Origin: Candidatus Lloydbacteria bacterium RIFCSPHIGHO2_02_FULL_50_18
Lineage (GTDB): Bacteria; Patescibacteriota; Minisyncoccia; Phycocordibacterales; UBA6899
Direction of reading: 5' to 3'
DNA length: 64,000 bases
Assembly: GCA_001821395.1 (NCBI GenBank)
Contig: MHLM01000003.1
Coordinates: 46,151 to 110,150, forward strand
Below, piece by piece: positions 1,092-12,662 of the stretch. Positions within the stretch are counted from its first letter, which is position 1, and each line of letters begins with the position of its first letter. The notes under the pieces were generated by a model. That model worked only from the letters and a program-made list of their open reading frames with translations. It searched no databases and was not told the DNA's origin. The translations under genes were made by a program, and so were the position numbers.

Positions 1092-1487
1092 TTATAGGGT
1101 TTGGATAATGTTGGTGAATTTTTGTCCGAAGGTTCTCATCTCGATCAGCCTGTGCTCGTCCATCAAGTCGACGATCGCCCCAAGGTCGCCAGCATTTCTG
1201 CTTAAGCGATCCGGGTGCCACGCAAGGATGGCGTTAAACTTGCCCGCCTTGAGGTCATTAATCAGCTCATTGAAGACAGGGCGTTGCCCGGTGCTTTTTG
1301 CCGAGTGTGATTCACGCTTGATGTCGACCACATCAAGCCCCTCCAGTTGTGCCAACTGGAGCATCTCTTTGGCTTGGGAATCGATGGAAAGGGCTTGTTG
1401 TTCGTCCGATTCCGTCGACCTTCTAGCGTATAAACAGTATTTAATTTTTGGCTCGTCAGAGCCCTCTAGCGGGTTTGTATTTTTCAT
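1092..1487 (-). pseudogene. serine recombinase/resolvase N-terminal catalytic domain fragment; C-terminal helix E and DNA-binding domain absent
   Basis: YARRSTESDEQ active-site serine motif and DRLSRN motif. ORF stops after about 130 aa, where the E-helix would begin. No SD. Confidence 0.55.
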
Positions 1488-1551
1488 ACACCACAATGAA
1501 TGACAGAACCCTCCCAGAGAGTCCAGGAAGGGTAGAATAGGTAAAAACAAA

Positions 1552-1581
1552 AGCCACCCGATGAGGGTGGCCTTGTTTTTT
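1552..1581. terminator. bidirectional intrinsic terminator
   Basis: gccaccc-gatgag-ggtggc hairpin with T-runs on both strands. Confidence 0.6.
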
Positions 1582-1589
1582 GTGAGAAA

Positions 1590-2783
1590 TTACAGTCCTC
1601 GTTCAAGTACTGCAATACGCGCAATGTTGTTGCAGAGTTTCCATGTTGCCTGGTCTTTACCAAGCTTGGTTGGATTTCGCATCTCTTTCGCTTGCTCACC
1701 GACAGTTTTTGCCAGCTCATCGGCAAGCGAGCGAAAAACCTTTATTGGGTCGTCCTTCCAGATCGCCTTATCTCCCTCAACTTTCACGAGATTGCGGAAT
1801 GCCGCTAGTACGGGATAGATGAAAGCACTTGGTATTCTATAGTTCGCCTCACTTGAGTTGAAGATAAGTTCTTCATTAGCCATTTTGGGGCGGTTATTGA
1901 TCTGTATCACTCCAGTTAAGGCGCCAAATTTCCCACCGGCAGCTTTATTGTAAGCCTCAGGAAGTTCTCTGTAGATCGTGTCACGTAATTCGAGAATTCT
2001 TGGAATGAGCGGGACATACTTCATCAGGGTGGCTCGATAATTTTTGAAGTGTTCGATCACGTTTGATTTCTGCGAATATGCCATTATTGGATGATGTTCT
2101 TGGTCAAAATGATCGACATCGAAACATACGAGATAGGAAAGAATCTCCTTGATGTCCACATCCTTTGCTTCACCCGTTTTTTCGTCAATCTCATATTCTT
2201 TGTAGGCAATTCGATTTGCATATGGCTTGTCTTTGACTACCTGCTTGATCTCTTCAAAATGCTGATTCAGCTCCTCAAGGCTTTCGGACTTTACTTGAGC
2301 GGAGGTATTACGCGCGAGCACGATCTCAACTGCGTCATCTAGATTTTCAATCCCTTCAATAATTTCGATGCGAACACAGGCATTGATATCCTTTAACTCA
2401 TCTGGATTTGCACTATGGACGAAGTTTTGCAGAACACGGTATGTATGCCCGCCATCCAGTAGGCCGTGACGAGTTGAATCAACTAATTCAAGACTCACCT
2501 CGCCTGTCTTGTTGTCGTATTCGGCCTTGTCAACAAGCAAGGTAATACCGCGATTGCGGAAAAGAAATTGGTCAGGATTGTTTTCGAGTGATTTCTGAAT
2601 CTTCTTGCTGACCCCAGAAGTGATCTTGGGGTCACGCGGATTAATTTTTCGCCACTCCTCTACTTCAGCGGGTAAGTTAACGATGTTTGCTACTGCGATA
2701 TATGATCGGGCCACTGTTTCGTCATGTGGACTCTCGATTCTTCTGAAAGATGCAACTGGAAATTTAATAATTGTGCTTTTCAT
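1590..2783 (-). CDS. defense-island protein, possibly AIPR (abortive-infection phage-resistance) family; contains a DGGH(T) ParB/DGQHR-like motif
   Basis: About 397 aa ORF adjacent to and divergent from the R-M genes. Motif LLDGGHTYRVL. Family call is tentative; no search possible. Confidence 0.4.
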   Translation of the reverse strand: MKSTIIKFPVASFRRIESPHDETVARSYIAVANIVNLPAEVEEWRKINPRDPKITSGVSKKIQKSLENNPDQFLFRNRGITLLVDKAEYDNKTGEVSLELVDSTRHGLLDGGHTYRVLQNFVHSANPDELKDINACVRIEIIEGIENLDDAVEIVLARNTSAQVKSESLEELNQHFEEIKQVVKDKPYANRIAYKEYEIDEKTGEAKDVDIKEILSYLVCFDVDHFDQEHHPIMAYSQKSNVIEHFKNYRATLMKYVPLIPRILELRDTIYRELPEAYNKAAGGKFGALTGVIQINNRPKMANEELIFNSSEANYRIPSAFIYPVLAAFRNLVKVEGDKAIWKDDPIKVFRSLADELAKTVGEQAKEMRNPTKLGKDQATWKLCNNIARIAVLERGL

Positions 2784-3087
2784 ACTGTGTATGGCTAAGC
2801 GAATAAATGGGCAAAATAAAAACATGCCCGGTGCGCATGCTTAGCAGTCGTCTATGAAAAATATTCATTAGGCTGAGCTAAATGTTGGTCGAGATCTCTC
2901 TACGGCCCTCCACAGCTTTCACTACTGGAGTCAGTGTGCGTACATCACTGATTTCATTAGCCTACACCCGTAGCTGGGCTGACGTCAATGAATAACCAAA
3001 CATCCTCTAGAGAGCCAAGAATAAAGGGCAAAAAGCCCATAATTGTCCCCATTTTTCTTAATTTTTTCCTACTTAATTTGATCCGAT

Positions 3088-3098
3088 GTTGCTATAAT
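3088..3098 (+). promoter_or_regulatory. extended -10 promoter element (TGcTATAAT) for methyltransferase gene, short leader
   Basis: tgcTATAAT ends 17 nt upstream of the ATG at 3116. No SD. Confidence 0.4.
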
Positions 3099-3115
3099 TA
3101 GGATACGATTTTTGC

Positions 3116-5041
3116 ATGAGGCTTCTTGAACAACACAAAATTGCTCCCCGCATTTCTGCTTCTCAGGAGAGTGTTTTTGTCACTCGACCACTTCTTAAGT
3201 GGGCGGGAGGGAAAACACAACTGCTTGATGAGCTTCTTCCTAAACTTCCAGATGAGTATGGTCGGTTTATAGAACCGTTCATTGGTGGTGGAGCTTTATT
3301 TTTCAAAGTTAAGCCCAGAAACGGAATAATCGCAGACAGTAACCCGGAACTAGTAAACATGTATCGCTCAGTTGCGGAGAATGTTACTGCTGTCATTGAG
3401 CACCTCACGCGCTATAAGAATACGGAAGAGATGTTTTATAAAGTGCGGGCGCAAGACTGGGGTAATCTTTCTCCAGAGGAAGCAGCCGCACGTACCATCT
3501 ATCTGAATCGCACCTGCTTTAATGGGCTGTATCGAGTCAATAAAAAAGGACAATTCAACGTACCGTATGGTAGATATACGAATCCGCGAATAGTCGACGT
3601 AGAAGGATTAATATCTGCATCTCAGCTTTTGCAGAATACCAAAATAATCTGTGGTGACTACAAGAGCGTGTTGCGCGAAGAAGCACGTGCTGGTGATTTT
3701 ATCTTTCTTGATCCTCCCTATTTGCCCATATCAGAATATGCAGACTTCAAGAGATACACCAAGGAGCAATTTTATGAAGAGGACCACGTGGAACTAGCAG
3801 AAGAAGTACGACGCCTTCATGACTTGGGATGTCACGTTGTTTTAACAAACTCGAATCATCCGTTGGTGCATGAGCTGTATCAAGGATTTGAGATAGAGGT
3901 AATTCAATCAAGGCGCAACATCAGTTCAAATGCAAAGAGTAGAACAGGGGAGGACGTAATTGTCACAGCAATACCTAGGCACCGCTTCAATAAGAGACTC
4001 ATAATTACTCCACAACCTGAACAATTACTGAAGTACCCATCAACAAGATACATGGGATCGAAGAATAAATTGCTAGATCAAATCTGGGCAGTTGCTTCAC
4101 AGTTTAATTTTGATACTGCTGTGGACCTATTTTCGGGATCCGGCATAGTTGGCTATATGTTTAAGGCGCATGGCAAAGAAGTGCTATCAAATGACTATAT
4201 GACGATGTCTGCCGTTTTTGCAAAGGCCATGGTGGAGAATAATAATGTTCGTCTCACGGAGAAAGATATAAATGCACTACTCAAGTCACATCGTGCGGTC
4301 GATCGTTTTGTCCAAGAAACTTTCGGAGGATTGTATTTTACCGACGAAGAAAACAAGCTCATTGATATCGTCAGGTCTAATGTAAAAAAACTGAAAAACC
4401 CGCACAAGAGAGCAATAGCAATGTCTGCGTTGATACGAGCGTGTGTCAAAAAAAGGCCACGAGGTATTTTTACTTATGTTGGACACAGGTATGATGACGG
4501 ACGCCGTGATCTCTCCATCTCTTTTGAGCAACAGTTCGTTGAGGCAATACAGGCCATCAATGCTTCAATCTTCGACAACGGAAAGAAGAACAAGGCACGA
4601 CAGGGTGATGCCATGAGCATTAATACCGGACATCCTGGCTTGGTTTACATTGATCCTCCATACTTTAGTCCATTTTCTGACAATGAATATGTGCGCCGGT
4701 ATCATTTTGTTGAGGGGTTGGCCCGCGATTGGAAGGGTGTTGAAATTCAAGAGCACACACTAACAAAGAAGTTTAAAAACTACCCCACTCCCTTTTCATC
4801 AAGAAATGGTGCATATGATGCTTTTGATCTTCTATTCAAGCGTTTTCGCAATAGTATTTTAATCGTTTCGTATTCTTCAAACAGCCTCCCCACGCTTGAT
4901 GAGATGGTTGCACTTATGGCAAAACATAAGCGACATGTCGAAGTCATACCCGTTGATTATAAATATTCGATCGGCAACCAAGGGCATAAAGTTAACGATA
5001 ACCGGAATAACGTTAAAGAATACTTGTTTGTTGGATACTAA
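3116..5041 (+). CDS. Type IIS-style fused two-domain N6-adenine DNA methyltransferase (M.FokI-like; two Dam/D12-class domains)
   Basis: 641 aa. Domain 1: LLKWAGGKTQLLDEL, FIGGGALFF, LDPPY. Domain 2: YMGSKNKLL, FSGSGIVGY, IDPPYFSP. The architecture and the roughly 640-aa length are those of M.FokI. Confidence 0.85.
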   Translation: MRLLEQHKIAPRISASQESVFVTRPLLKWAGGKTQLLDELLPKLPDEYGRFIEPFIGGGALFFKVKPRNGIIADSNPELVNMYRSVAENVTAVIEHLTRYKNTEEMFYKVRAQDWGNLSPEEAAARTIYLNRTCFNGLYRVNKKGQFNVPYGRYTNPRIVDVEGLISASQLLQNTKIICGDYKSVLREEARAGDFIFLDPPYLPISEYADFKRYTKEQFYEEDHVELAEEVRRLHDLGCHVVLTNSNHPLVHELYQGFEIEVIQSRRNISSNAKSRTGEDVIVTAIPRHRFNKRLIITPQPEQLLKYPSTRYMGSKNKLLDQIWAVASQFNFDTAVDLFSGSGIVGYMFKAHGKEVLSNDYMTMSAVFAKAMVENNNVRLTEKDINALLKSHRAVDRFVQETFGGLYFTDEENKLIDIVRSNVKKLKNPHKRAIAMSALIRACVKKRPRGIFTYVGHRYDDGRRDLSISFEQQFVEAIQAINASIFDNGKKNKARQGDAMSINTGHPGLVYIDPPYFSPFSDNEYVRRYHFVEGLARDWKGVEIQEHTLTKKFKNYPTPFSSRNGAYDAFDLLFKRFRNSILIVSYSSNSLPTLDEMVALMAKHKRHVEVIPVDYKYSIGNQGHKVNDNRNNVKEYLFVGY

Positions 5042-5061
5042 AGATATAGGATTGTGAAATC

Positions 5062-6810
5062 ATGTCAGGAGTATGGAATATAGGAAATACCACAGTTCGC
5101 AACCCCAAAAGAATTGAAATGGGACTACGCCTACTCCACGAAGGTGGATTCTTGGGCAACCTTGAGGGAGAGGAAAATGAAATTAAACTTACCGACGCAC
5201 TGGTGCAGTCTGGGGTTGTTGATTCCGCCTCTAAAGAAAAGAGTTCTGCTTGGCTGGGTCGCAAGTGGAGAAATGTGATGGTGAAGCTGGGCTTTATTAC
5301 CGACAAGGCATATCGAATAGAAGGAAAAGCTGTATCTCACAGTAAAATATTCACAGAAATAGGTGCGGATATGAATGCTTACTCTCTTACTCCCGCAGGG
5401 GAGAGGTTGGTAATGGCAAAGACGCTTGGAGAAGTGCAAGATGTTTTCTTGCAACAACTGTATCGACACCAATTGCCAAATCCTCTTGAAAAGAAAGTTC
5501 CCAAAGACGCACCACCCATGCGACCCTTTGTGCTCCTGCTTGATGTCCTGCTTAGCTTGCAGAACGACGATGCTGGGATTTCCCAGACGGAAACAGCAAT
5601 ATTTATACAAGAAATACAAAGCCACACTCAGGACACGGGAGTAAAGATAGCCATGAAGATTATTGCTTACAGAAAAAAGAGAGGAATGTTGTCTTCAAGG
5701 AGGGAAAAACTAATCTTTGACAAGGAACTTTTGAGCGAAGTTTCAACAAGGGCGAAGGTCAAACTACTGACTCCTCGTGACTATGCCGATACCACAATTA
5801 GATATTTTTCCATGACAGGGCTTTTTGAAGTTCATGGATCCCGGATGTGTATCAAAGCTGAAAAAAGAAACGTTGCAGAGGAATTAGTAAAGAGCTCACA
5901 AGATCTTTTTGTAATTACTGACCCCGTTCAGTATCTCAAGGAGTTTTATGTTGGAACTGGGTTGCCAACCGATAACACGAGGGTGTTAAACGAGGAGCTT
6001 GCTGCGCTCAAAGAAATAGCACATGAATTAAAAATCAAAACCAAGGCTACGGGAGAAAAAGATCCCAACAGGTTAAAGGCGGAAAAATATAAACTTGAAG
6101 AAGATATTTTGTTTGCCAAAGAGGAGCAATTTGCACTTTTGCAACAGAATCCTGATCAGGTTGAAGACATAATCTCGTCCCTGTCTAAGATAGCTACAAG
6201 TGATCGCGACTTTTTGCGCAGCCTCGTGGATCTCCCCGCTTATCTAGAGTGGATTGTTTGGAGAGGATTTTTGTCTGTTGATCATATTACGGTCCCAACA
6301 AAAGAAACACGTGGCTTTCCTGTTGATTCCGATTTGCAGCCAAGATATCCTGCCCCAGGGGGTAGACCGGATATGTCCTTTGAGTTTTTGGACTACAGTC
6401 TTGTTGTCGAAGTGACATTAACCACCTCCACTCGACAATATATTGCCGAGTGTGAGCCAGTAAGAAGACATGTTGCCAACGGAAAAGGTGGAAAGGAGAC
6501 ACTCGGAATTTTTATTGCTCCCACCCTCGACAATAACTTTCTCCATAAAGTGCGAGAGCACTTCCGTGGTGACGAGCTAATAATGCTAAAGATTTTACCG
6601 CTCACGATTTCACATTTTGTTCGCTTGCTTGAGGTACACAAGTCCACATCCATTACGCCCGACGACGTTAAGGATCTAATCTTGAGGGTCAATAGTAGTG
6701 AATCCTCAAATGGTCTTGAGTGGAAGAAGCATATTGAGCAGACTTTTGATGAATGGTTACAAGAACATGGAGCAGTCGATGCTGTGAGAGGAAAGGTCGT
6801 GGCGGCGTAG
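5062..6810 (+). CDS. Type IIS restriction endonuclease, FokI-like (N-terminal recognition region, C-terminal PD-(D/E)xK cleavage domain)
   Basis: 582 aa (FokI is 587 aa). C-terminus GGRPDMSFEFLDYSLVVEVT aligns by eye to FokI RKPDGAIY...DYGVIVDTK. The downstream AECEPVRRHV segment matches ADEMQRYVEE. It sits immediately after the two-domain methyltransferase. Confidence 0.6.
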   Translation: MSGVWNIGNTTVRNPKRIEMGLRLLHEGGFLGNLEGEENEIKLTDALVQSGVVDSASKEKSSAWLGRKWRNVMVKLGFITDKAYRIEGKAVSHSKIFTEIGADMNAYSLTPAGERLVMAKTLGEVQDVFLQQLYRHQLPNPLEKKVPKDAPPMRPFVLLLDVLLSLQNDDAGISQTETAIFIQEIQSHTQDTGVKIAMKIIAYRKKRGMLSSRREKLIFDKELLSEVSTRAKVKLLTPRDYADTTIRYFSMTGLFEVHGSRMCIKAEKRNVAEELVKSSQDLFVITDPVQYLKEFYVGTGLPTDNTRVLNEELAALKEIAHELKIKTKATGEKDPNRLKAEKYKLEEDILFAKEEQFALLQQNPDQVEDIISSLSKIATSDRDFLRSLVDLPAYLEWIVWRGFLSVDHITVPTKETRGFPVDSDLQPRYPAPGGRPDMSFEFLDYSLVVEVTLTTSTRQYIAECEPVRRHVANGKGGKETLGIFIAPTLDNNFLHKVREHFRGDELIMLKILPLTISHFVRLLEVHKSTSITPDDVKDLILRVNSSESSNGLEWKKHIEQTFDEWLQEHGAVDAVRGKVVAA

Positions 6811-6818
6811 ATTAAAAA

Positions 6819-6846
6819 ACAGACCACCCATTAATGGGCGGTCTGC
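6819..6846 (+). terminator. terminator after R-M operon
   Basis: cagaccaccca-ttaa-tgggcggtctg hairpin with one mismatch. T-run slightly downstream. Confidence 0.5.
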
Positions 6847-6871
6847 TCTGCTCCGGTTTTTGTGGAAATAA

Positions 6872-7147
6872 CTACAATCCACGCTCAAGAACGGCAATGC
6901 GAGCACGCTTTCAGACAATGGGTTCGGCCTACGTGTTTTTGATGGCGCGGTAGAAATTCACGATTCGACGATCGCGGGTAACGAAACGGGCATAATGAAT
7001 ACAGATATTGATATGGTGGTTGACGCCACAAGGAATTATTGGGGAGACGCTGACGGGCCGACGCTTTCGGGTGAAGCAGCTGATGGTGACAGCATCTCGG
7101 AAAATGTTTTGACCGAAGGTTTCCTCGTCGCTCCGCCGATGATCTAA
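6872..7147 (+). pseudogene. 3' remnant of a parallel beta-helix (PbH1) repeat protein gene, no start codon
   Basis: Open frame reads ...NGNASTLSDNGFGLRVFDGAVEIHDSTIAGNETGIMNTDIDMVVDATRNYWGDADG...PPMI*. A stop codon lies just upstream and no upstream start is present. Confidence 0.45.
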
Positions 7148-7272
7148 GAAGGGTCGATTACCGATGTTTTGTCCAAGCGCAAGACCACTGGACGGCATCA
7201 CCTATACCGGTAGTCCTTGTCATGAAATTGCCCATGTAAGCATCAAAGAATCCTTCGGTGTGTTAACATGAA

Positions 7273-7521
7273 GTGATGAAATCAAAAGGATGGGGACTTG
7301 AGTTGATCGGGGCGTATGGAATGGTGATGATACTCGGAGCGTATTTTTTGACGTCTTTTAATTATGTTCTTGCCGATAATCTCTGGTATCAATTGATGAA
7401 TCTTACGGGTGGTATGGCTTTTGTGTACTACACGCTCACGAAAAAGGCGTGGGCGTCCCTCGGGGTCAACTCGGTGTGGGTCATCATCGCCGCCGTCAGT
7501 CTCTGGAAGATGTTCATGTAG
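7273..7521 (+). CDS. small hydrophobic membrane protein, unknown function
   Basis: 82 aa with 2-3 predicted TM helices. The antisense ORF looks like noise. Confidence 0.45.
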   Translation: MMKSKGWGLELIGAYGMVMILGAYFLTSFNYVLADNLWYQLMNLTGGMAFVYYTLTKKAWASLGVNSVWVIIAAVSLWKMFM

Positions 7522-7595
7522 CCAAGCGCTCGGCATTTAGGTTGCAATGAACCGGATACCCTACTTGAGGACTTGAGACGTAGCACAAAATTTTA

Positions 7596-7635
7596 AAAGT
7601 ACTATTTATTTGCTATAGCAAATAAATAGTACTTT
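7596..7635. repeat. perfect 40-bp palindrome (arms AAAGTACTATTTA... / ...TAAATAGTACTTT)
   Basis: aaagtactatttatttgcta|tagcaaataaatagtacttt read directly. Lies between convergent genes, 90 bp past the stop of the PaaX-like gene. Confidence 0.9.
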
Positions 7636-7724
7636 CACTTTTGGAGATGAGCACGGGAAGGGGGAGGACGTAATGCTCTTGGTTTGTGGTTGTCGGAGGA
7701 CTGCATCTGCTGTCGTGGGTAGAG

Positions 7725-8372
7725 TTATTGTAAATGAAAGTGGCGGATGAGTTCCGGTGCATTATCGATATCGGTTGCCGTCATAAAGCGGATGTGTCGC
7801 CGGGCATTGTAGAATTCCATTATGTATTCGATCTCGCTTGCGCAAGGGTAGGGGTGCACGAAGACTGATTTTTGAAACTCAGAGAATCCCATGTTCTTGA
7901 AATGCATGCGGAGCGCATCGCGAACGCCTTTCAGATTTTCCGGAACATCAAACATCACCACTCGCCATTTTTTGTCCCAATAAGGAGGCATTTTGATGAC
8001 CAAGTTATCAAGATCATAACGGAGTGCCACTTCCTTACCCTCCTTTGACAGGACAAGAGTGAATGTGCCGTCCTTATTGCTTTTTGTGCTTACGAGCTTG
8101 GACTTATAGAGATTTTGGATCGCCTGATTGAGCGCCCTACGGTTGATGGCGTTCCACTCTGCCTTCATTGCCCTCGCGACACGAAAGTACTGTTTCGGTG
8201 ATCGTGAGAGCCCGAGTGCCAATCCGCCGAGTAAGAGGAGCAGCACCTTTTGTTGCACATGTCCCACTCGTCTCTTTGAAACGTCGCTCGCTGTACCCAC
8301 CCCCTTCTTTATCTCTGTCTTTCGCATGGTGATTTGTTTGGATATTTTTGTCACACCATTCAATCTTTTCAT
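7725..8372 (-). CDS. PaaX-like transcriptional regulator (N-terminal winged HTH + central Cas2-like domain), short C-terminus
   Basis: 215 aa. Cas2/VapD-like pattern WRVVMFDVPENLKGVRDALRMHFKNMGFSEFQKSVF. Basic helical N-terminus. Confidence 0.5.
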   Translation of the reverse strand: MKRLNGVTKISKQITMRKTEIKKGVGTASDVSKRRVGHVQQKVLLLLLGGLALGLSRSPKQYFRVARAMKAEWNAINRRALNQAIQNLYKSKLVSTKSNKDGTFTLVLSKEGKEVALRYDLDNLVIKMPPYWDKKWRVVMFDVPENLKGVRDALRMHFKNMGFSEFQKSVFVHPYPCASEIEYIMEFYNARRHIRFMTATDIDNAPELIRHFHLQ

Positions 8373-8830: not shown

Positions 8831-10123
8831 CTAGGACCACTTCACTTTGAGGAAGTGAGACGCGCAACTCATACAAGGGTCATACGCCCTTACCAGTTTC
8901 TCCATTTCGAGTGGCATCTTTTCTTTTTCCATTCCTCGCGCGATCAGTCCTTCGACGTAACGCCCCATGTCTTGCTCGATGTTGATCTGGTTCTGCCCGG
9001 TGGGAACGATAACTTCACCGTCTTTGATGAGTCCATCGGCACCCAAGACGAGTTTATGATAAAGCGTTCCGCGGGGAGCCTCAACAATGCCGACACCGAC
9101 GGCATCGCGTGCGGGTTTTTTGATCAAAGGCTCCGGAGTGAATTTGCGCGTGCGGAGTATCTCGACCGCCTCATCGAGGGAGTGCAATATTTCGATCGCT
9201 TGCGCGAGGTTGTTGTGGAAGATGTCGGTCGACGGGAAGAGTGCGAGCGCCTCAGGTATTGATGCTTTGGTGTTTGGGTGGAGTTTGTCTTTTGCAATAT
9301 TGATGCGGGCGAGTGAGCCCACCATGTAGCCGTCGCCTTTATACTGGTATGCAGATGCCTGTGAGTAGGGGAGAACGACATGTTCCAAAAGATTGCGGTA
9401 CTCACTCTTGGGGAATATTTCGCCTCGGCTCGTGCGGATGGTGCCCGTGATGTAGCCAAAGTTGCCTTCGGGAATGAGCGCCTGATAATTGGTCTTGCGA
9501 TCGAAATGGAACGGCTGGTCCTGGAATATCTTGATCAAGCGTAACGCTGCAGGGCGCATCGCTTCCATTTTTTCAATTGCTTCGTCGATGCCCGCCTGGT
9601 CGGGGAAGTGAAGGAACCCGCCGATCGTCGGATAGTGCGCATGGACGGAGCGTCCCGCAATAAGTGTTGCGAGGAAATTTCCCGCGGCCTTGATCCCAAA
9701 GCCGTCATGGAGGATCTGGTGTTCCTCGGGAATATTCTCATCGAGGTCGAGGAAGGCATCCTTGCCGTAGACATCGGGGAGCGAGAAGAGATAGAGGTGA
9801 AGTGCGTGGTCGCGAATGGTGAGTCCGTGCATCGTGAGTGCGCGAAGGACATCGGTCTGCTCCGAGGGTTCGATGTCGAGCGCGTCTTCACATGCGAGGA
9901 TGGCAGCCATGACGTGTGCATTTGAGCAGGTACCGCAGATGCGTGCCAAATGTTGCGGTATTGCAAGAATGGCTTTGCCCTTCATCGCTTCCGTGAAGAA
10001 GCGCTTGTATTCAATGGTCTGGAATTTCACATCGGTCACTTTGCCGTCTTCGACTTTGACCGAGATCGAGGCGTCGCCTTCGATCTTCGTAATGTGTTCC
10101 ATGCTGAGATCAAATGTATGCAT
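8831..10123 (-). CDS. [NiFe]-hydrogenase large (alpha) subunit, group 3-like
   Basis: 430 aa. N-terminal RICGTCSNAH (RxCGxCxxxH) and C-terminal DPCMSCASH (DPCxxCxxH) Ni-Fe ligand motifs. Confidence 0.9.
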   Translation of the reverse strand: MHTFDLSMEHITKIEGDASISVKVEDGKVTDVKFQTIEYKRFFTEAMKGKAILAIPQHLARICGTCSNAHVMAAILACEDALDIEPSEQTDVLRALTMHGLTIRDHALHLYLFSLPDVYGKDAFLDLDENIPEEHQILHDGFGIKAAGNFLATLIAGRSVHAHYPTIGGFLHFPDQAGIDEAIEKMEAMRPAALRLIKIFQDQPFHFDRKTNYQALIPEGNFGYITGTIRTSRGEIFPKSEYRNLLEHVVLPYSQASAYQYKGDGYMVGSLARINIAKDKLHPNTKASIPEALALFPSTDIFHNNLAQAIEILHSLDEAVEILRTRKFTPEPLIKKPARDAVGVGIVEAPRGTLYHKLVLGADGLIKDGEVIVPTGQNQINIEQDMGRYVEGLIARGMEKEKMPLEMEKLVRAYDPCMSCASHFLKVKWS

Positions 10124-10294
10124 ACGTGTTTGGTGTGATATTGGTTAGAACTTTCACATTCGGCGACCTGCTTCGTTGTTTTCCTCGAGTCTCCCTCGTC
10201 GTACTCCGAGTACGCCTCGGTTCGATTCTCGGTCACGCCTCGCAGGTCATCCGAATCCGAAAGTTTTTAATAATTGTTCGTTGTTTTCATACTA

Positions 10295-10816
10295 TTAATT
10301 TGCAGGAGAGATCGCTGCGGCGGGTAGGGCTAGGTCGGGGCGCAGTTCGGTGACAAGTGCGGTGACGGCTTTCAAAAATATATCGGTATTCATGGGACAC
10401 CCGGGAACGGACGCATCAACCGTGACAACGTCTGACACTTTGAGTACCTGGGGCAATGCACCAAAACGGTCGACGAGGAATTGGATGTTCGCGGTCTGCT
10501 CGGGGGTGAAATTATTGCGCTGCGCGGATGGTCCTCCGGTGACTGCACATGCGCCGATCGCCACCAACTTCGTCGAAATACTGCGAATATGTTTCAATTT
10601 CTCGACGTGAGCGGGCGAGGCCATTGCGCCCTCGATGAAGGCGATGTCGAAGGCGTCCATGATGTTGTTCGTTTTCAGGACCTTGACGTGGCGGAAATCA
10701 AAAATGCGTTTCCATTCCTGCCAATGGTCATTCATGAGCTCGGTAAAGACGATGGTGCTGTCTTCACAGCAAGAAAAAGAGAACCAACCGATAGCTATTT
10801 TTTTGTTTGTTTCCAT
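10295..10816 (-). CDS. [NiFe]-hydrogenase small subunit, truncated form with proximal FeS cluster only (HydD/delta-like)
   Basis: 173 aa. IGWFSFSCCEDS, DIAFIEGA, VAIGACAVTGG, VPGCPM are alignable to Pyrococcus HydD N-terminal half. The medial/distal cluster region is absent. Confidence 0.8.
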   Translation of the reverse strand: METNKKIAIGWFSFSCCEDSTIVFTELMNDHWQEWKRIFDFRHVKVLKTNNIMDAFDIAFIEGAMASPAHVEKLKHIRSISTKLVAIGACAVTGGPSAQRNNFTPEQTANIQFLVDRFGALPQVLKVSDVVTVDASVPGCPMNTDIFLKAVTALVTELRPDLALPAAAISPAN

Positions 10817-10912
10817 AGGAAAATGGGAATTAATGAGAGCAGTATAACATCGTTTGTCGTGAAAAACAGCTCACCGCATGCGCGGGCGTTATGCACCGCT
10901 GCTGTCGAGAAA

Positions 10913-10921
10913 CTTCTGGTA
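10913..10921 (+). promoter_or_regulatory. extended -10 (TGgTATAAT) giving a near-leaderless transcript for the OFOR operon
   Basis: tggtataat ends about 10 nt before the ATG at 10932. No SD. Confidence 0.4.
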
Positions 10922-10931
10922 TAATAATCCG

Positions 10932-12662
10932 ATGGAAACAGTAAAACAGAACATTCCGGTCTTTACGGTCGCCGTCGGAGGTGCCGCAGGGGACGGGATC
11001 AAAGAAGGGGGGCTGCATCTCGCCGAACTCGCACAGCGTCTCGGCTGTTTTGCATATCTTACTATGGAGTATCCGTCGCTTATCCGCGGCGGGCACAATT
11101 TTGGGCGGATGACGTACGGGGCGAGCGAGGTGCATGCCGACCATTCCGCGCTTGATGCGGTCATTGCGATGAATGCAGAGTCCGCACTTCTGCATCAGGA
11201 CGAACTGAAGGATGATGCCATTGTCTTTGTTGATACTCCTCATGCCGAGGCGTTGAAGGATATCGGACGGAAGGTGGTCGCAATACCCATGTCGCAGGCC
11301 GTGAAAGAGGTGGGTGCACCGCATGCTGCAGGCCCGTCGGTCGGAGTCGGCGCATATTGCTATCTTGCCGGACTTTCGCGCGAGAATGCCGAGGCACTAC
11401 TTGGAAAGATCTTTGGCGATATCCTGGGCGGTGTTGCGATGAACGTCGCACTTGCACTTCGAGGGTATGATGCCGCAAAAGAGTCGGGACTCACTCCGCG
11501 CACCGAACTCTACGTCGATGGCGCGTGTGCGCACACGGGAGTACTGCTTGAGGGGAACAAAGCGGTCGCTTTGGGATTTCTTTCCGCCGGACTCGAATTT
11601 TATATCGGATATCCGATGACGCCCGCATCGGGCATTCTGCATTTTCTTGCTAAGGAAGCGGTGGGCGGTGCGCTTACGGTGATCCACCCTGAGGATGAGA
11701 TCGCATCGATCAACATGGCGCTCGGCGTTGCGTATGCGGGAAAGCGCGTTGCGACCGGTACGGCAACCGGAGGGTTCGCGCTCATGCAGGAGGCATTTTC
11801 ATTCGCCGGCGTGAGCGAGCTTCCGCTCGCGGTTGCGGTATCGCAGCGACAAGGTCCTGCAACAGGGGCAGCTACGCGGACATCGCAGGGTGATCTACGT
11901 TTCGTCATCTCATCCGGTCATGGAGAATTTCCCCGCATGGTGATCGCTCCGGGCGATGCCGAGGAGGCATACACGGCCGGACGCATCGCACTCAACCTGG
12001 CGTGGAAGTTCCAAACTCCCGCGATCGTGCTGCTTGATAAACAACTTTCCGAAAGCTATCAGACGACAGTTGTCGATGGGGCGGCGAAACAGATCACCCC
12101 GCACAAAGCACAAGAAGAAGGTGACTACCAGCGATTCCGTTTTTCTCCCGACGGCGTATCACCACTCGCCTTTCCCGGCACTCCGAATACAAAAGTGAAG
12201 GCAACGAGCTATGAGCACGATGAATTCGGTATCGCGTCCGATAAGCCCGAAATGGTGCAGGCGATGCAGGAGAAACGCTGGAAAAAAATGGAAGGCATCC
12301 GTGCTGATGCACATAATTTTGAGACGGTAAAAGTGTATGGTGACCCTGCTGCAAAGAACGCCGTCATATTCTTTGGTTCGACCAAGGGCTCCGTTCTTGA
12401 GGCGGCAAAAATGATCGATACCCCGCTTCGGCTCGTACAGGTCCTCTGGATGGAGCCATTCCCCGAGGAGGAAGTTGCCAAAGCACTCGAGGGAGCCATA
12501 CGCATCATCGATGTTGAGGCAAATCACAATGCACAGTTCGCGGGACTCCTGCGTGAAAAGACCGGCATTGTCTGCCACGAGAAGATCCTCAAATTTGACG
12601 CACGGCCATTTGACCCGGCAGTACTCGCAGCAGAATTACGCAGTAAACTTTCATTATCATGA
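10932..12662 (+). CDS. 2-oxoacid:ferredoxin oxidoreductase alpha subunit (gamma-alpha fused), two-subunit OFOR type
   Basis: N-terminal POR gamma domain (GGAAGDGI...). Alpha domain motif GYPMTPASGILHF. The ORF begins at 10878 on the track, but METVKQ at 10932 follows the promoter. Confidence 0.85.
   Translation: METVKQNIPVFTVAVGGAAGDGIKEGGLHLAELAQRLGCFAYLTMEYPSLIRGGHNFGRMTYGASEVHADHSALDAVIAMNAESALLHQDELKDDAIVFVDTPHAEALKDIGRKVVAIPMSQAVKEVGAPHAAGPSVGVGAYCYLAGLSRENAEALLGKIFGDILGGVAMNVALALRGYDAAKESGLTPRTELYVDGACAHTGVLLEGNKAVALGFLSAGLEFYIGYPMTPASGILHFLAKEAVGGALTVIHPEDEIASINMALGVAYAGKRVATGTATGGFALMQEAFSFAGVSELPLAVAVSQRQGPATGAATRTSQGDLRFVISSGHGEFPRMVIAPGDAEEAYTAGRIALNLAWKFQTPAIVLLDKQLSESYQTTVVDGAAKQITPHKAQEEGDYQRFRFSPDGVSPLAFPGTPNTKVKATSYEHDEFGIASDKPEMVQAMQEKRWKKMEGIRADAHNFETVKVYGDPAAKNAVIFFGSTKGSVLEAAKMIDTPLRLVQVLWMEPFPEEEVAKALEGAIRIIDVEANHNAQFAGLLREKTGIVCHEKILKFDARPFDPAVLAAELRSKLSLS

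Follow-up and report, generated by a model that had tools for sequence, protein, structure and literature searches.

The locus described here raises a question of ownership: does an AIPR-family gene that lies beside a restriction–modification (R-M) pair belong to that pair, or is it a unit of its own and, if so, what controls it? The gene occupies positions 1590–2783, on the minus strand, of a 64,000-nucleotide (nt) stretch of contig MHLM01000003.1 from Candidatus Lloydbacteria bacterium RIFCSPHIGHO2_02_FULL_50_18 (hereafter 'the window', meaning that whole stretch); its ATG is at 2783 and its stop codon at 1590–1592, and it codes for a protein of 397 amino acids (aa) that represents the short, AIPR-domain-only form of the family. 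Annotation as AIPR, taken alone, leads to a known and poorly understood family. The new part is a conserved, folded leader RNA upstream of the gene, which has apparently not been described until now.

A comparison of upstream regions showed that the nucleotide sequence of about 190 nt before the gene is conserved among loci with unrelated neighbouring genes. In the window this region, which is on the minus strand like the gene, starts with a sigma-70-type promoter at 2959–2988 (–35 TTGACG at 2988–2983, an 18-nt spacer and –10 TAGGCT at 2964–2959) and continues with a structured leader RNA of about 145 nt, found as a covariance-model hit of 164.7 bits at 2806–2956, whose predicted start, at about 2952, is about 169 nt upstream of the AIPR ATG. 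Four stems follow one another, P1 (2951–2931), P2 (2930–2908), P3 (2907–2887) and P4 (2884–2866); after a variable AU-rich stretch comes an intrinsic terminator (2812–2842), with a stem-loop at 2842–2820 and a U tract extending to about 2812, and this fifth helix is 95% paired, with compensatory changes at five pairs. The –10 element in the window is weak and scored under the threshold of a generic promoter scan. The TTGAC of the –35 is invariant in close relatives, and a promoter of the form TTGACA-N16–19-TAnnnT occupies this position in 38 of 41 leader copies, ending 2–5 nt before the start of the model in most of the 38 and 8–10 nt before it in the Saccharibacteria-type copies. The terminator ends 37 nt before the start codon and its U tract reaches to within 29 nt of it; among the leader copies this distance is usually 15–60 nt, with a Shine–Dalgarno sequence there in some of them. 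Since the gap is too short for a second promoter, AIPR would be transcribed by read-through only.

The element was traced in other genomes with two covariance models, the first (R1) built from 8 sequences and the second (R2) from the sequences that R1 found. With R1, the element was located directly upstream of AIPR, and on the same strand, in 31 non-redundant loci (E ≤ 1e-3), and R2 added seven further loci; there was one model hit per locus. At least 35 related AIPR genes are preceded by the leader, and within the Patescibacteria-type clade it is present at 28 of 32 genome loci. In the 31-sequence alignment, which was fitted to the covariance model and hence favours pairing, 93.5% of cells are paired against 72.9% after shuffling (none of 500 shuffles reached the observed value), and 33 of the 40 pairs show compensatory changes, whereas controls in which the partner strand was slid gave 23–46% pairing. 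An independent MAFFT/RNAalifold analysis of 8 sequences found compensatory changes in 13 of 40 pairs. The multi-stem core is highly conserved, including loop and junction bases.

Moreover, there are 115 G-U pairs and just 15 A-C pairs, an excess which assigns the structure to an RNA with the sense of AIPR rather than to the DNA; a palindrome or attachment (att) site at the DNA level was rejected on this ground. The leader is 61–89% identical between loci in which the identity of four-fold degenerate sites is 0.20–0.36. A leader peptide or small protein was also considered and rejected, because the small ORFs (open reading frames) in the region are broken by indels of 1–4 nt and the conservation follows base pairing. 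In addition, the metagenome collection was scanned with a pattern describing the RNA only, the sensitivity of which is about 35%; of 53 matches the covariance model confirmed eight, each of which has an AIPR gene within the next few tens of nt. An earlier and stricter RNA pattern matched four known loci and no viral contigs. Searches of Rfam 15 returned no relevant family, RF03085 included, either for the window leader (E up to 10) or for four other copies (E up to 1), and within the library of papers searched none names both AIPR and riboswitch. The leader is a real structured RNA of the sense strand, fixed in front of AIPR.

The leader also settles where the protein begins. The longest ORF in the same frame starts at an ATG at 2825 and would code for 411 aa, but this ATG is situated within the conserved terminator hairpin and conservation in an alignment of 43 homologues begins at MKST; for these reasons the start was placed at 2783 and the 411-aa start rejected. 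The public gene calls P0001, P0008 and P0009 begin 14 codons early (411 aa), with their ATG within the leader terminator (GGGCATGTTTTT), and the N-termini of these 411-aa entries are almost certainly wrong; gene callers often place the start of AIPR 14 codons too early, in the terminator. There are 464 homologues in the databases, of about 395 aa. Between relatives the protein is 65–87% identical while four-fold degenerate sites, at 0.20–0.36 identity, are saturated, which shows that the AIPR protein is under strong purifying selection; together with the number of homologues, this rules out a chance ORF. Directly after the stop codon there is a strong bidirectional terminator (1550–1574, minus strand; 10 pairs, six of them G-C, then a T-rich tail). 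Thus, the leader and AIPR form a single-gene unit.

The initial annotation had described a protein of about 400 aa, transcribed divergently from a methyltransferase, and had suggested AIPR as a family that reading of the sequence could not assign. Both points held: the 397-aa ORF is on the minus strand and the methyltransferase gene (3116–5041) on the plus strand, and the Pfam AIPR model (PF10592) matched residues 48–365 with E = 7.5e-31 and 108.4 bits, above the curated gathering score of 25, over model positions 4–301 of 308. The same model matched 43 of the 43 aligned homologues. By its sequence, then, the gene is a true member of the AIPR family, and an unusually compact one. The PADLOC model for AbiU gave a weak match (20 bits, E = 7e-5) confined to profile positions 250–371 of 537, and the NCBIfam model for MzaE (NF041935) gave 11.8 bits against a cut-off of 1050, confined to positions 255–347 of 593; a full-length match to either model, including the N-terminal 250 or so residues, was not found. 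As both models align through their C-terminal parts only, the window protein is an AIPR domain without anything in front. It thus shares with other AIPR proteins, among them AbiU1 (Lactococcus) and MzaE (MZA system), a significant match over most of the AIPR domain model, but lacks the approximately 250 N-terminal residues that AbiU1 and MzaE carry, and its locus differs from theirs by the dedicated leader RNA. In AbiU1 this additional region has been described as nuclease-like, resembling FokI or PD-(D/E)XK enzymes (PMC13064643, PMC13099982). AbiU1, a long form, is the sole AIPR protein with a reported phenotype, and a weak one (PMC13064643).

The short form is no fragment: when 1.84 billion cluster representatives were searched exhaustively, 1204 clusters of short-form relatives at 50% identity were returned, 193 of them with E ≤ 1e-30, and nearly all of the best 150 cluster relatives are 370–445 aa long and align from their first residues. 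In two relatives, P0122 (593 aa) and P0125 (488 aa), the AIPR part comes first and is followed by 100–220 aa of additional C-terminal sequence, the opposite of the order in AbiU1 and MzaE. Because the PADLOC AbiU model matches so weakly, defence annotation tools would probably miss the short-form gene.

It had also been noted that the protein contains LLDGGHTYRVL, reminiscent of the DGQHR motif of DndB-like proteins and of the ParB/sulfiredoxin (Srx) type. The stretch corresponds to residues 108–118 (window 2430–2462), and in it D110, G111, G112, H113 and T114 (2442–2456, minus strand) are invariant in the 43 homologues, which are 52–85% identical to the query. In the predicted structural model a β-strand finishes at L-L-D and a helix opens at G-H-T; at this strand-to-helix position DGGHT occupies the place of DGQHR, DGQQR or GCHR in ParB/Srx-fold proteins. 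When the N-terminal domain (about residues 1–160; 2304–2783, minus strand) was compared with known folds, scores of 6.5 were obtained for PadC (ParB-like), 5.4 for both pNOB8 ParB-N and SspE (DUF262), 5.1 and 5.0 for two sulfiredoxins and 4.6 for SbnI. The modelled fold agrees with the placement of AbiU1/AIPR in the ParB superfamily by Makarova et al. (2013; PMC3632139), and we assign a ParB/Srx-like fold to this domain with modest confidence. We infer that DGGHT may be a switch that binds nucleotides or nucleic acid, or a catalytic centre.

Three results weigh against this assignment and against the account of the locus that we prefer (see below). A Foldseek search of the PDB gave nothing significant; hidden Markov models (HMMs) for ParBc, DUF262 and DndB matched none of the 43 members even at E up to 10; and DGGHT has an invariant Thr where DGQHR has Arg. 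Hence, of the resemblance first proposed, the fold, as modelled, and the position of the motif stood, while a profile match to DndB, DGQHR or ParBc models and the motif as such did not. The window protein likewise differs from DndB/DGQHR proteins, whose motif is DGQHR or DGQQR, and from DUF262 proteins (GmrSD, SspE, BrxU), in having no HMM-level similarity to either group (Pfam, NCBIfam) and in having a different C-terminal domain, with no DUF1524/HNH effector domain. The C-terminal α/β domain (residues 172–397; 1593–2270, minus strand) was modelled separately and with confidence (predicted local distance difference test, 95), and no structural relative of it is present in the PDB. Neither the protein sequence nor the 43-sequence profile gave any hit among PDB sequences, and no AIPR structure was found there. 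Among the five flanking ORFs scanned (227–1550 and 3116–8372), no MZA partner genes were found and, against Pfam, no dnd or ssp (phosphorothioation) genes.

How, then, might the RNA act on the gene? In Clostridioides difficile, the RNA of the RCd22-AbiF pair starts 168 nt upstream of the ATG and ends at a terminator that is passed by read-through; it is short and abundant, and besides ending transcription in cis it acts in trans, by binding and neutralising the toxic Abi protein (PMC12373285). The window locus has the same order of parts as RCd22-AbiF (RF03085), a sigma-70 promoter, an RNA of about 130–150 nt, a Rho-independent terminator, no second promoter and an Abi-type gene, and the distance from start to ATG, 168 nt there, is about 169 nt here. 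The RNAs, however, are unrelated, the window leader having no match to RF03085, and AbiF is of the Abi_2/HEPN type, whereas the window protein is a ParB/Srx-like AIPR protein. A single unit of promoter, RNA, terminator and effector gene is also the layout of the type III toxin–antitoxin systems (ToxIN, AbiQ/antiQ, CptIN, TenpIN), in which an RNA gene and a terminator immediately precede the effector, as in the window. In such a layout the RNA is made in excess over the effector mRNA, and the context is that of abortive infection. These systems differ from the window locus in that the antitoxin RNA consists of tandem direct repeats that are processed by the toxin, whereas the leader has no tandem repeats, and in that the toxin is an endoribonuclease of the ToxN/AbiQ fold, in the place of which there is AIPR; no RNase-like structural match was found for the window protein.

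We consider it fairly probable that the leader is an attenuator, an RNA antitoxin or both, gating a self-contained AIPR abortive-infection effector module. The effector would arrest growth or act against viruses, with the DGGHT domain as its active centre. The module would run from its own sigma-70 promoter through the structured leader and the intrinsic terminator to the AIPR ORF and the second terminator. Since AIPR can be transcribed only by read-through, the leader would limit its expression and, read-through being the sole route to AIPR mRNA, would hold the level of the protein low; by analogy with RCd22-AbiF and the type III toxin–antitoxin systems, the AIPR protein may in addition be bound and neutralised by the short, abundant RNA. 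An activity that aborts infection or arrests growth would then be released by infection (through shut-off of host transcription, for example) or by some signal to which the RNA responds. The UUUAGC of P4 (2882–2877), paired with a GCUAAG at the foot of the terminator (2840–2845, minus strand), its tentative partner, would serve as an antiterminator. We infer that AIPR would be repressed or neutralised by the RNA, that it would be toxic or antiviral, and what its biochemical activity may be.

The main rival is a ligand-sensing riboswitch: a purely cis-acting riboswitch or attenuator, in which P1–P4 would sense a metabolite, a nucleotide signal or an infection factor and the RNA would have no role as an antitoxin; binding would choose between the terminator and an antiterminator formed by the 5′ strand of P4 with the terminator foot. 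The leader is, as is found with riboswitches and attenuators, a conserved and covarying structure immediately 5′ of a gene, and the conservation of its multi-stem core, with loop and junction bases kept, would fit a sensor. The terminator itself is well supported, and UUUAG(C) in P4 is able to pair with (G)CUAAA at its base, with some changes being compensatory; the UUUAGC–GCUAAG helix is 78.9% paired, against 24–58% when the partner is slid. Its covariation is weak, however, with 15 cells showing two-sided changes against 8.7 expected and most positions invariant, and no ligand can be proposed.

Variants of the leader bear on the same question. Three of the four leader-negative loci of the Patescibacteria-type clade (L033, L035 and L081, each at 5760–6010) have a variant of about 200 nt with the same P1 and with a terminator, in which P1 reads GCUGAC...GUCAGC around UGCAUACGC; the variants are 76–81% identical among themselves, have a different middle part and were missed by both R1 and R2. 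In a clade of 35–42% identity (Acidobacteriota, Planctomycetota, Chloroflexota and others) the gap upstream of the gene is mostly at least 160 nt, and in many of these genes (L041–L076; for example, L047:862–970 and L056:5895–6006) about 100 nt of it are conserved in sequence. The leaders of this clade, a group aligned only roughly, form a hairpin with the GYAG...CUC signature of P3 and with compensatory changes; they have no terminator but a small hairpin of the AAGG/CCUU type beside the Shine–Dalgarno sequence. The leader outside Patescibacteria may thus be the same sensor on a translational platform, which we offer as a lead and not as a result. One sensor combined with different expression platforms is typical of riboswitches, and the retention of the GYAG...CUC hairpin with the terminator exchanged for a hairpin beside the Shine–Dalgarno sequence would favour a sensor in cis; the weight of this point is reduced by the rough alignment and by the sequestering of the Shine–Dalgarno sequence having been judged by eye. 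Moreover, the closest case that has been studied, RCd22, looked like a riboswitch and proved to be a protein-binding antitoxin as well (PMC12373285). We therefore regard a riboswitch acting solely in cis as rather unlikely, though a serious competitor of the module with an attenuator or antitoxin RNA; the two roles considered next are less likely still.

The position of the gene beside an R-M pair, as the initial annotation had stated, was borne out by profile matches to both neighbours. The methyltransferase (3116–5041, plus strand; 641 aa) is a fused, double enzyme of the D12/Dam class, with a match to Pfam MethyltransfD12 at E = 2.9e-88 and a match to the PADLOC model for type II methyltransferases over its full length, and the gene after it (5062–6810, plus strand) encodes a type II restriction endonuclease of the AlwI family (E = 4e-66). 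Each half of the methyltransferase has a DPPY catalytic motif, at 3708–3723 and 4650–4665 (repeat TTGATCCTCCCTAT), an arrangement that fits a fused enzyme methylating both strands of an asymmetric AlwI-type site. AIPR could be an accessory or controller of such neighbours, tuning expression of the methylase or endonuclease from the common divergent promoter region in the manner of DndB or of a C protein, or guarding the R-M system against anti-restriction. It is divergent from the methyltransferase over a shared intergenic region of 332 bp, a layout found again in the relatives P0008 and P0068; Iyer et al. (2008; PMC2292703) described AIPR as occurring commonly within R-M operons, and the N-terminus of DndB has been assigned to the same superfamily (PMC3632139).

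Relatives of the gene were examined for their neighbours. Of nine metagenome relatives one locus ends at the gene, and in seven of the eight informative neighbourhoods R-M genes adjoin AIPR, in keeping with the family description (PMC2292703): a MmeI/Eco57I-type enzyme, an SNF2-PLD helicase and a Ymh protein (P0005); MutH and an N6_N4 methylase (P0056); an N6_N4 methylase with a LexA DNA-binding domain (P0068); an NmeDI-like endonuclease (P0088); D12 and N6_N4 methylases with DUF6996/6997 (P0083); a D12 methylase, MutH and an N6_N4 methylase (P0008); and a ResIII helicase with an N6_N4 methylase, which is type III-like (P0004). The partners, however, are not constant. The window protein and those of P0004, P0005 and P0008, which are 81–85% identical to it, lie beside four types of R-M system (AlwI type IIS, type III-like, MmeI-like and MutH/GATC) in differing orientations, and because such near relatives have such different neighbours, AIPR is independent of any one R-M system. 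Furthermore, a DNA methyltransferase is present within 2.5 kb in just about 10–14 of 70 species-representative loci, where ORFs with methyltransferase motifs account for 10 of 250 near the gene and 2 of 176 farther off. No other family recurs near the 70 loci, save scattered recombinases, IS200-type transposases and toxin–antitoxin-like genes, and a fixed protein partner was rejected, no family being common to the neighbours of all. AIPR also has its own promoter, leader and two terminators. Thus, the gene tends toward variable regions rich in defence or mobility genes, often beside R-M genes and tied to none of them; the window AIPR does not form part of the AlwI-type R-M system beside it as a subunit, and a role as controller or accessory of that system seems improbable to us.

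The closest genome relative (L013, from a Paceibacterota metagenome-assembled genome), the AIPR of which is 87% identical to that of the window, has a convergent downstream ORF (7621–8298, minus strand) with 29% identity over 157 aa to the C-terminal part of the AlwI-family endonuclease in the window; this ORF may be an endonuclease remnant.

Finally, that RNA and AIPR serve a mobile island as an addiction or stabilisation module, or handle DNA in a ParB-like way, with no antiviral role, is most doubtful: a serine recombinase remnant lies directly downstream of AIPR in a low-GC island, homologues repeatedly have large serine recombinases and IS200-type transposases nearby and the layout resembles that of a toxin–antitoxin locus, but the neighbours are highly variable and often housekeeping genes, neither a ParA-type partition partner nor repeated centromere-like sites were seen, and addiction and defence are roles compatible with each other. 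The remnant (1092–1550, minus strand) matches positions 3–92 of the 145 of the resolvase profile, with weak matches to CcrB and IS607-type enzymes; the N-terminal part of the catalytic domain is kept and the rest deleted up to a convergent SDR gene (227–1030). Relatives of this recombinase remnant are found near AIPR genes in L043 and L111. The GC content is 0.42–0.45 at 2001–7000, a stretch containing AIPR, the methyltransferase and the endonuclease, against about 0.50 in the rest of the window, which fits an island gained by horizontal transfer; a search for flanking direct repeats that would mark its ends gave matches at the level of chance only.

Just beyond the R-M pair, at 7725–8372 (minus strand), is a gene for a protein of 215 aa with the central, Cas2-like domain of PaaX (E = 7e-20, with weak matches to Cas2). 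The genes at 8831–12662, as judged by eye, look like those for the large and small subunits of a [NiFe]-hydrogenase and for a 2-oxoacid:ferredoxin oxidoreductase. No tRNA and, at gathering thresholds, no Rfam family was found in the whole window.

AIPR has been listed among the genes of defence islands since 2008, and we know of neither a mechanism nor a solved structure for it. The present findings indicate that a large branch of the family, the short form, which is without the presumed effector domain of the characterised AIPR members, comes as a fixed module of RNA plus protein, and that the leader is a candidate new family of structured RNA with unusually clear covariation. We suggest tentatively that the leader represents a new class of RNA partnering a protein of the ParB/sulfiredoxin fold, either as an RNA-antitoxin system whose effector would not be an RNase, or as a riboswitch-like sensor that would arm an abortive-infection gene, on a terminator platform in Patescibacteria and a translational one elsewhere. 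The theme of an upstream RNA that guards the Abi gene behind it is known from ToxIN, AbiQ and AbiF/RCd22, and would be extended here to an unrelated fold and to Patescibacteria. If true, either reading would give a first mechanistic handle on the AIPR family, and also on a defence module found commonly in the candidate phyla radiation, a group poor in CRISPR.

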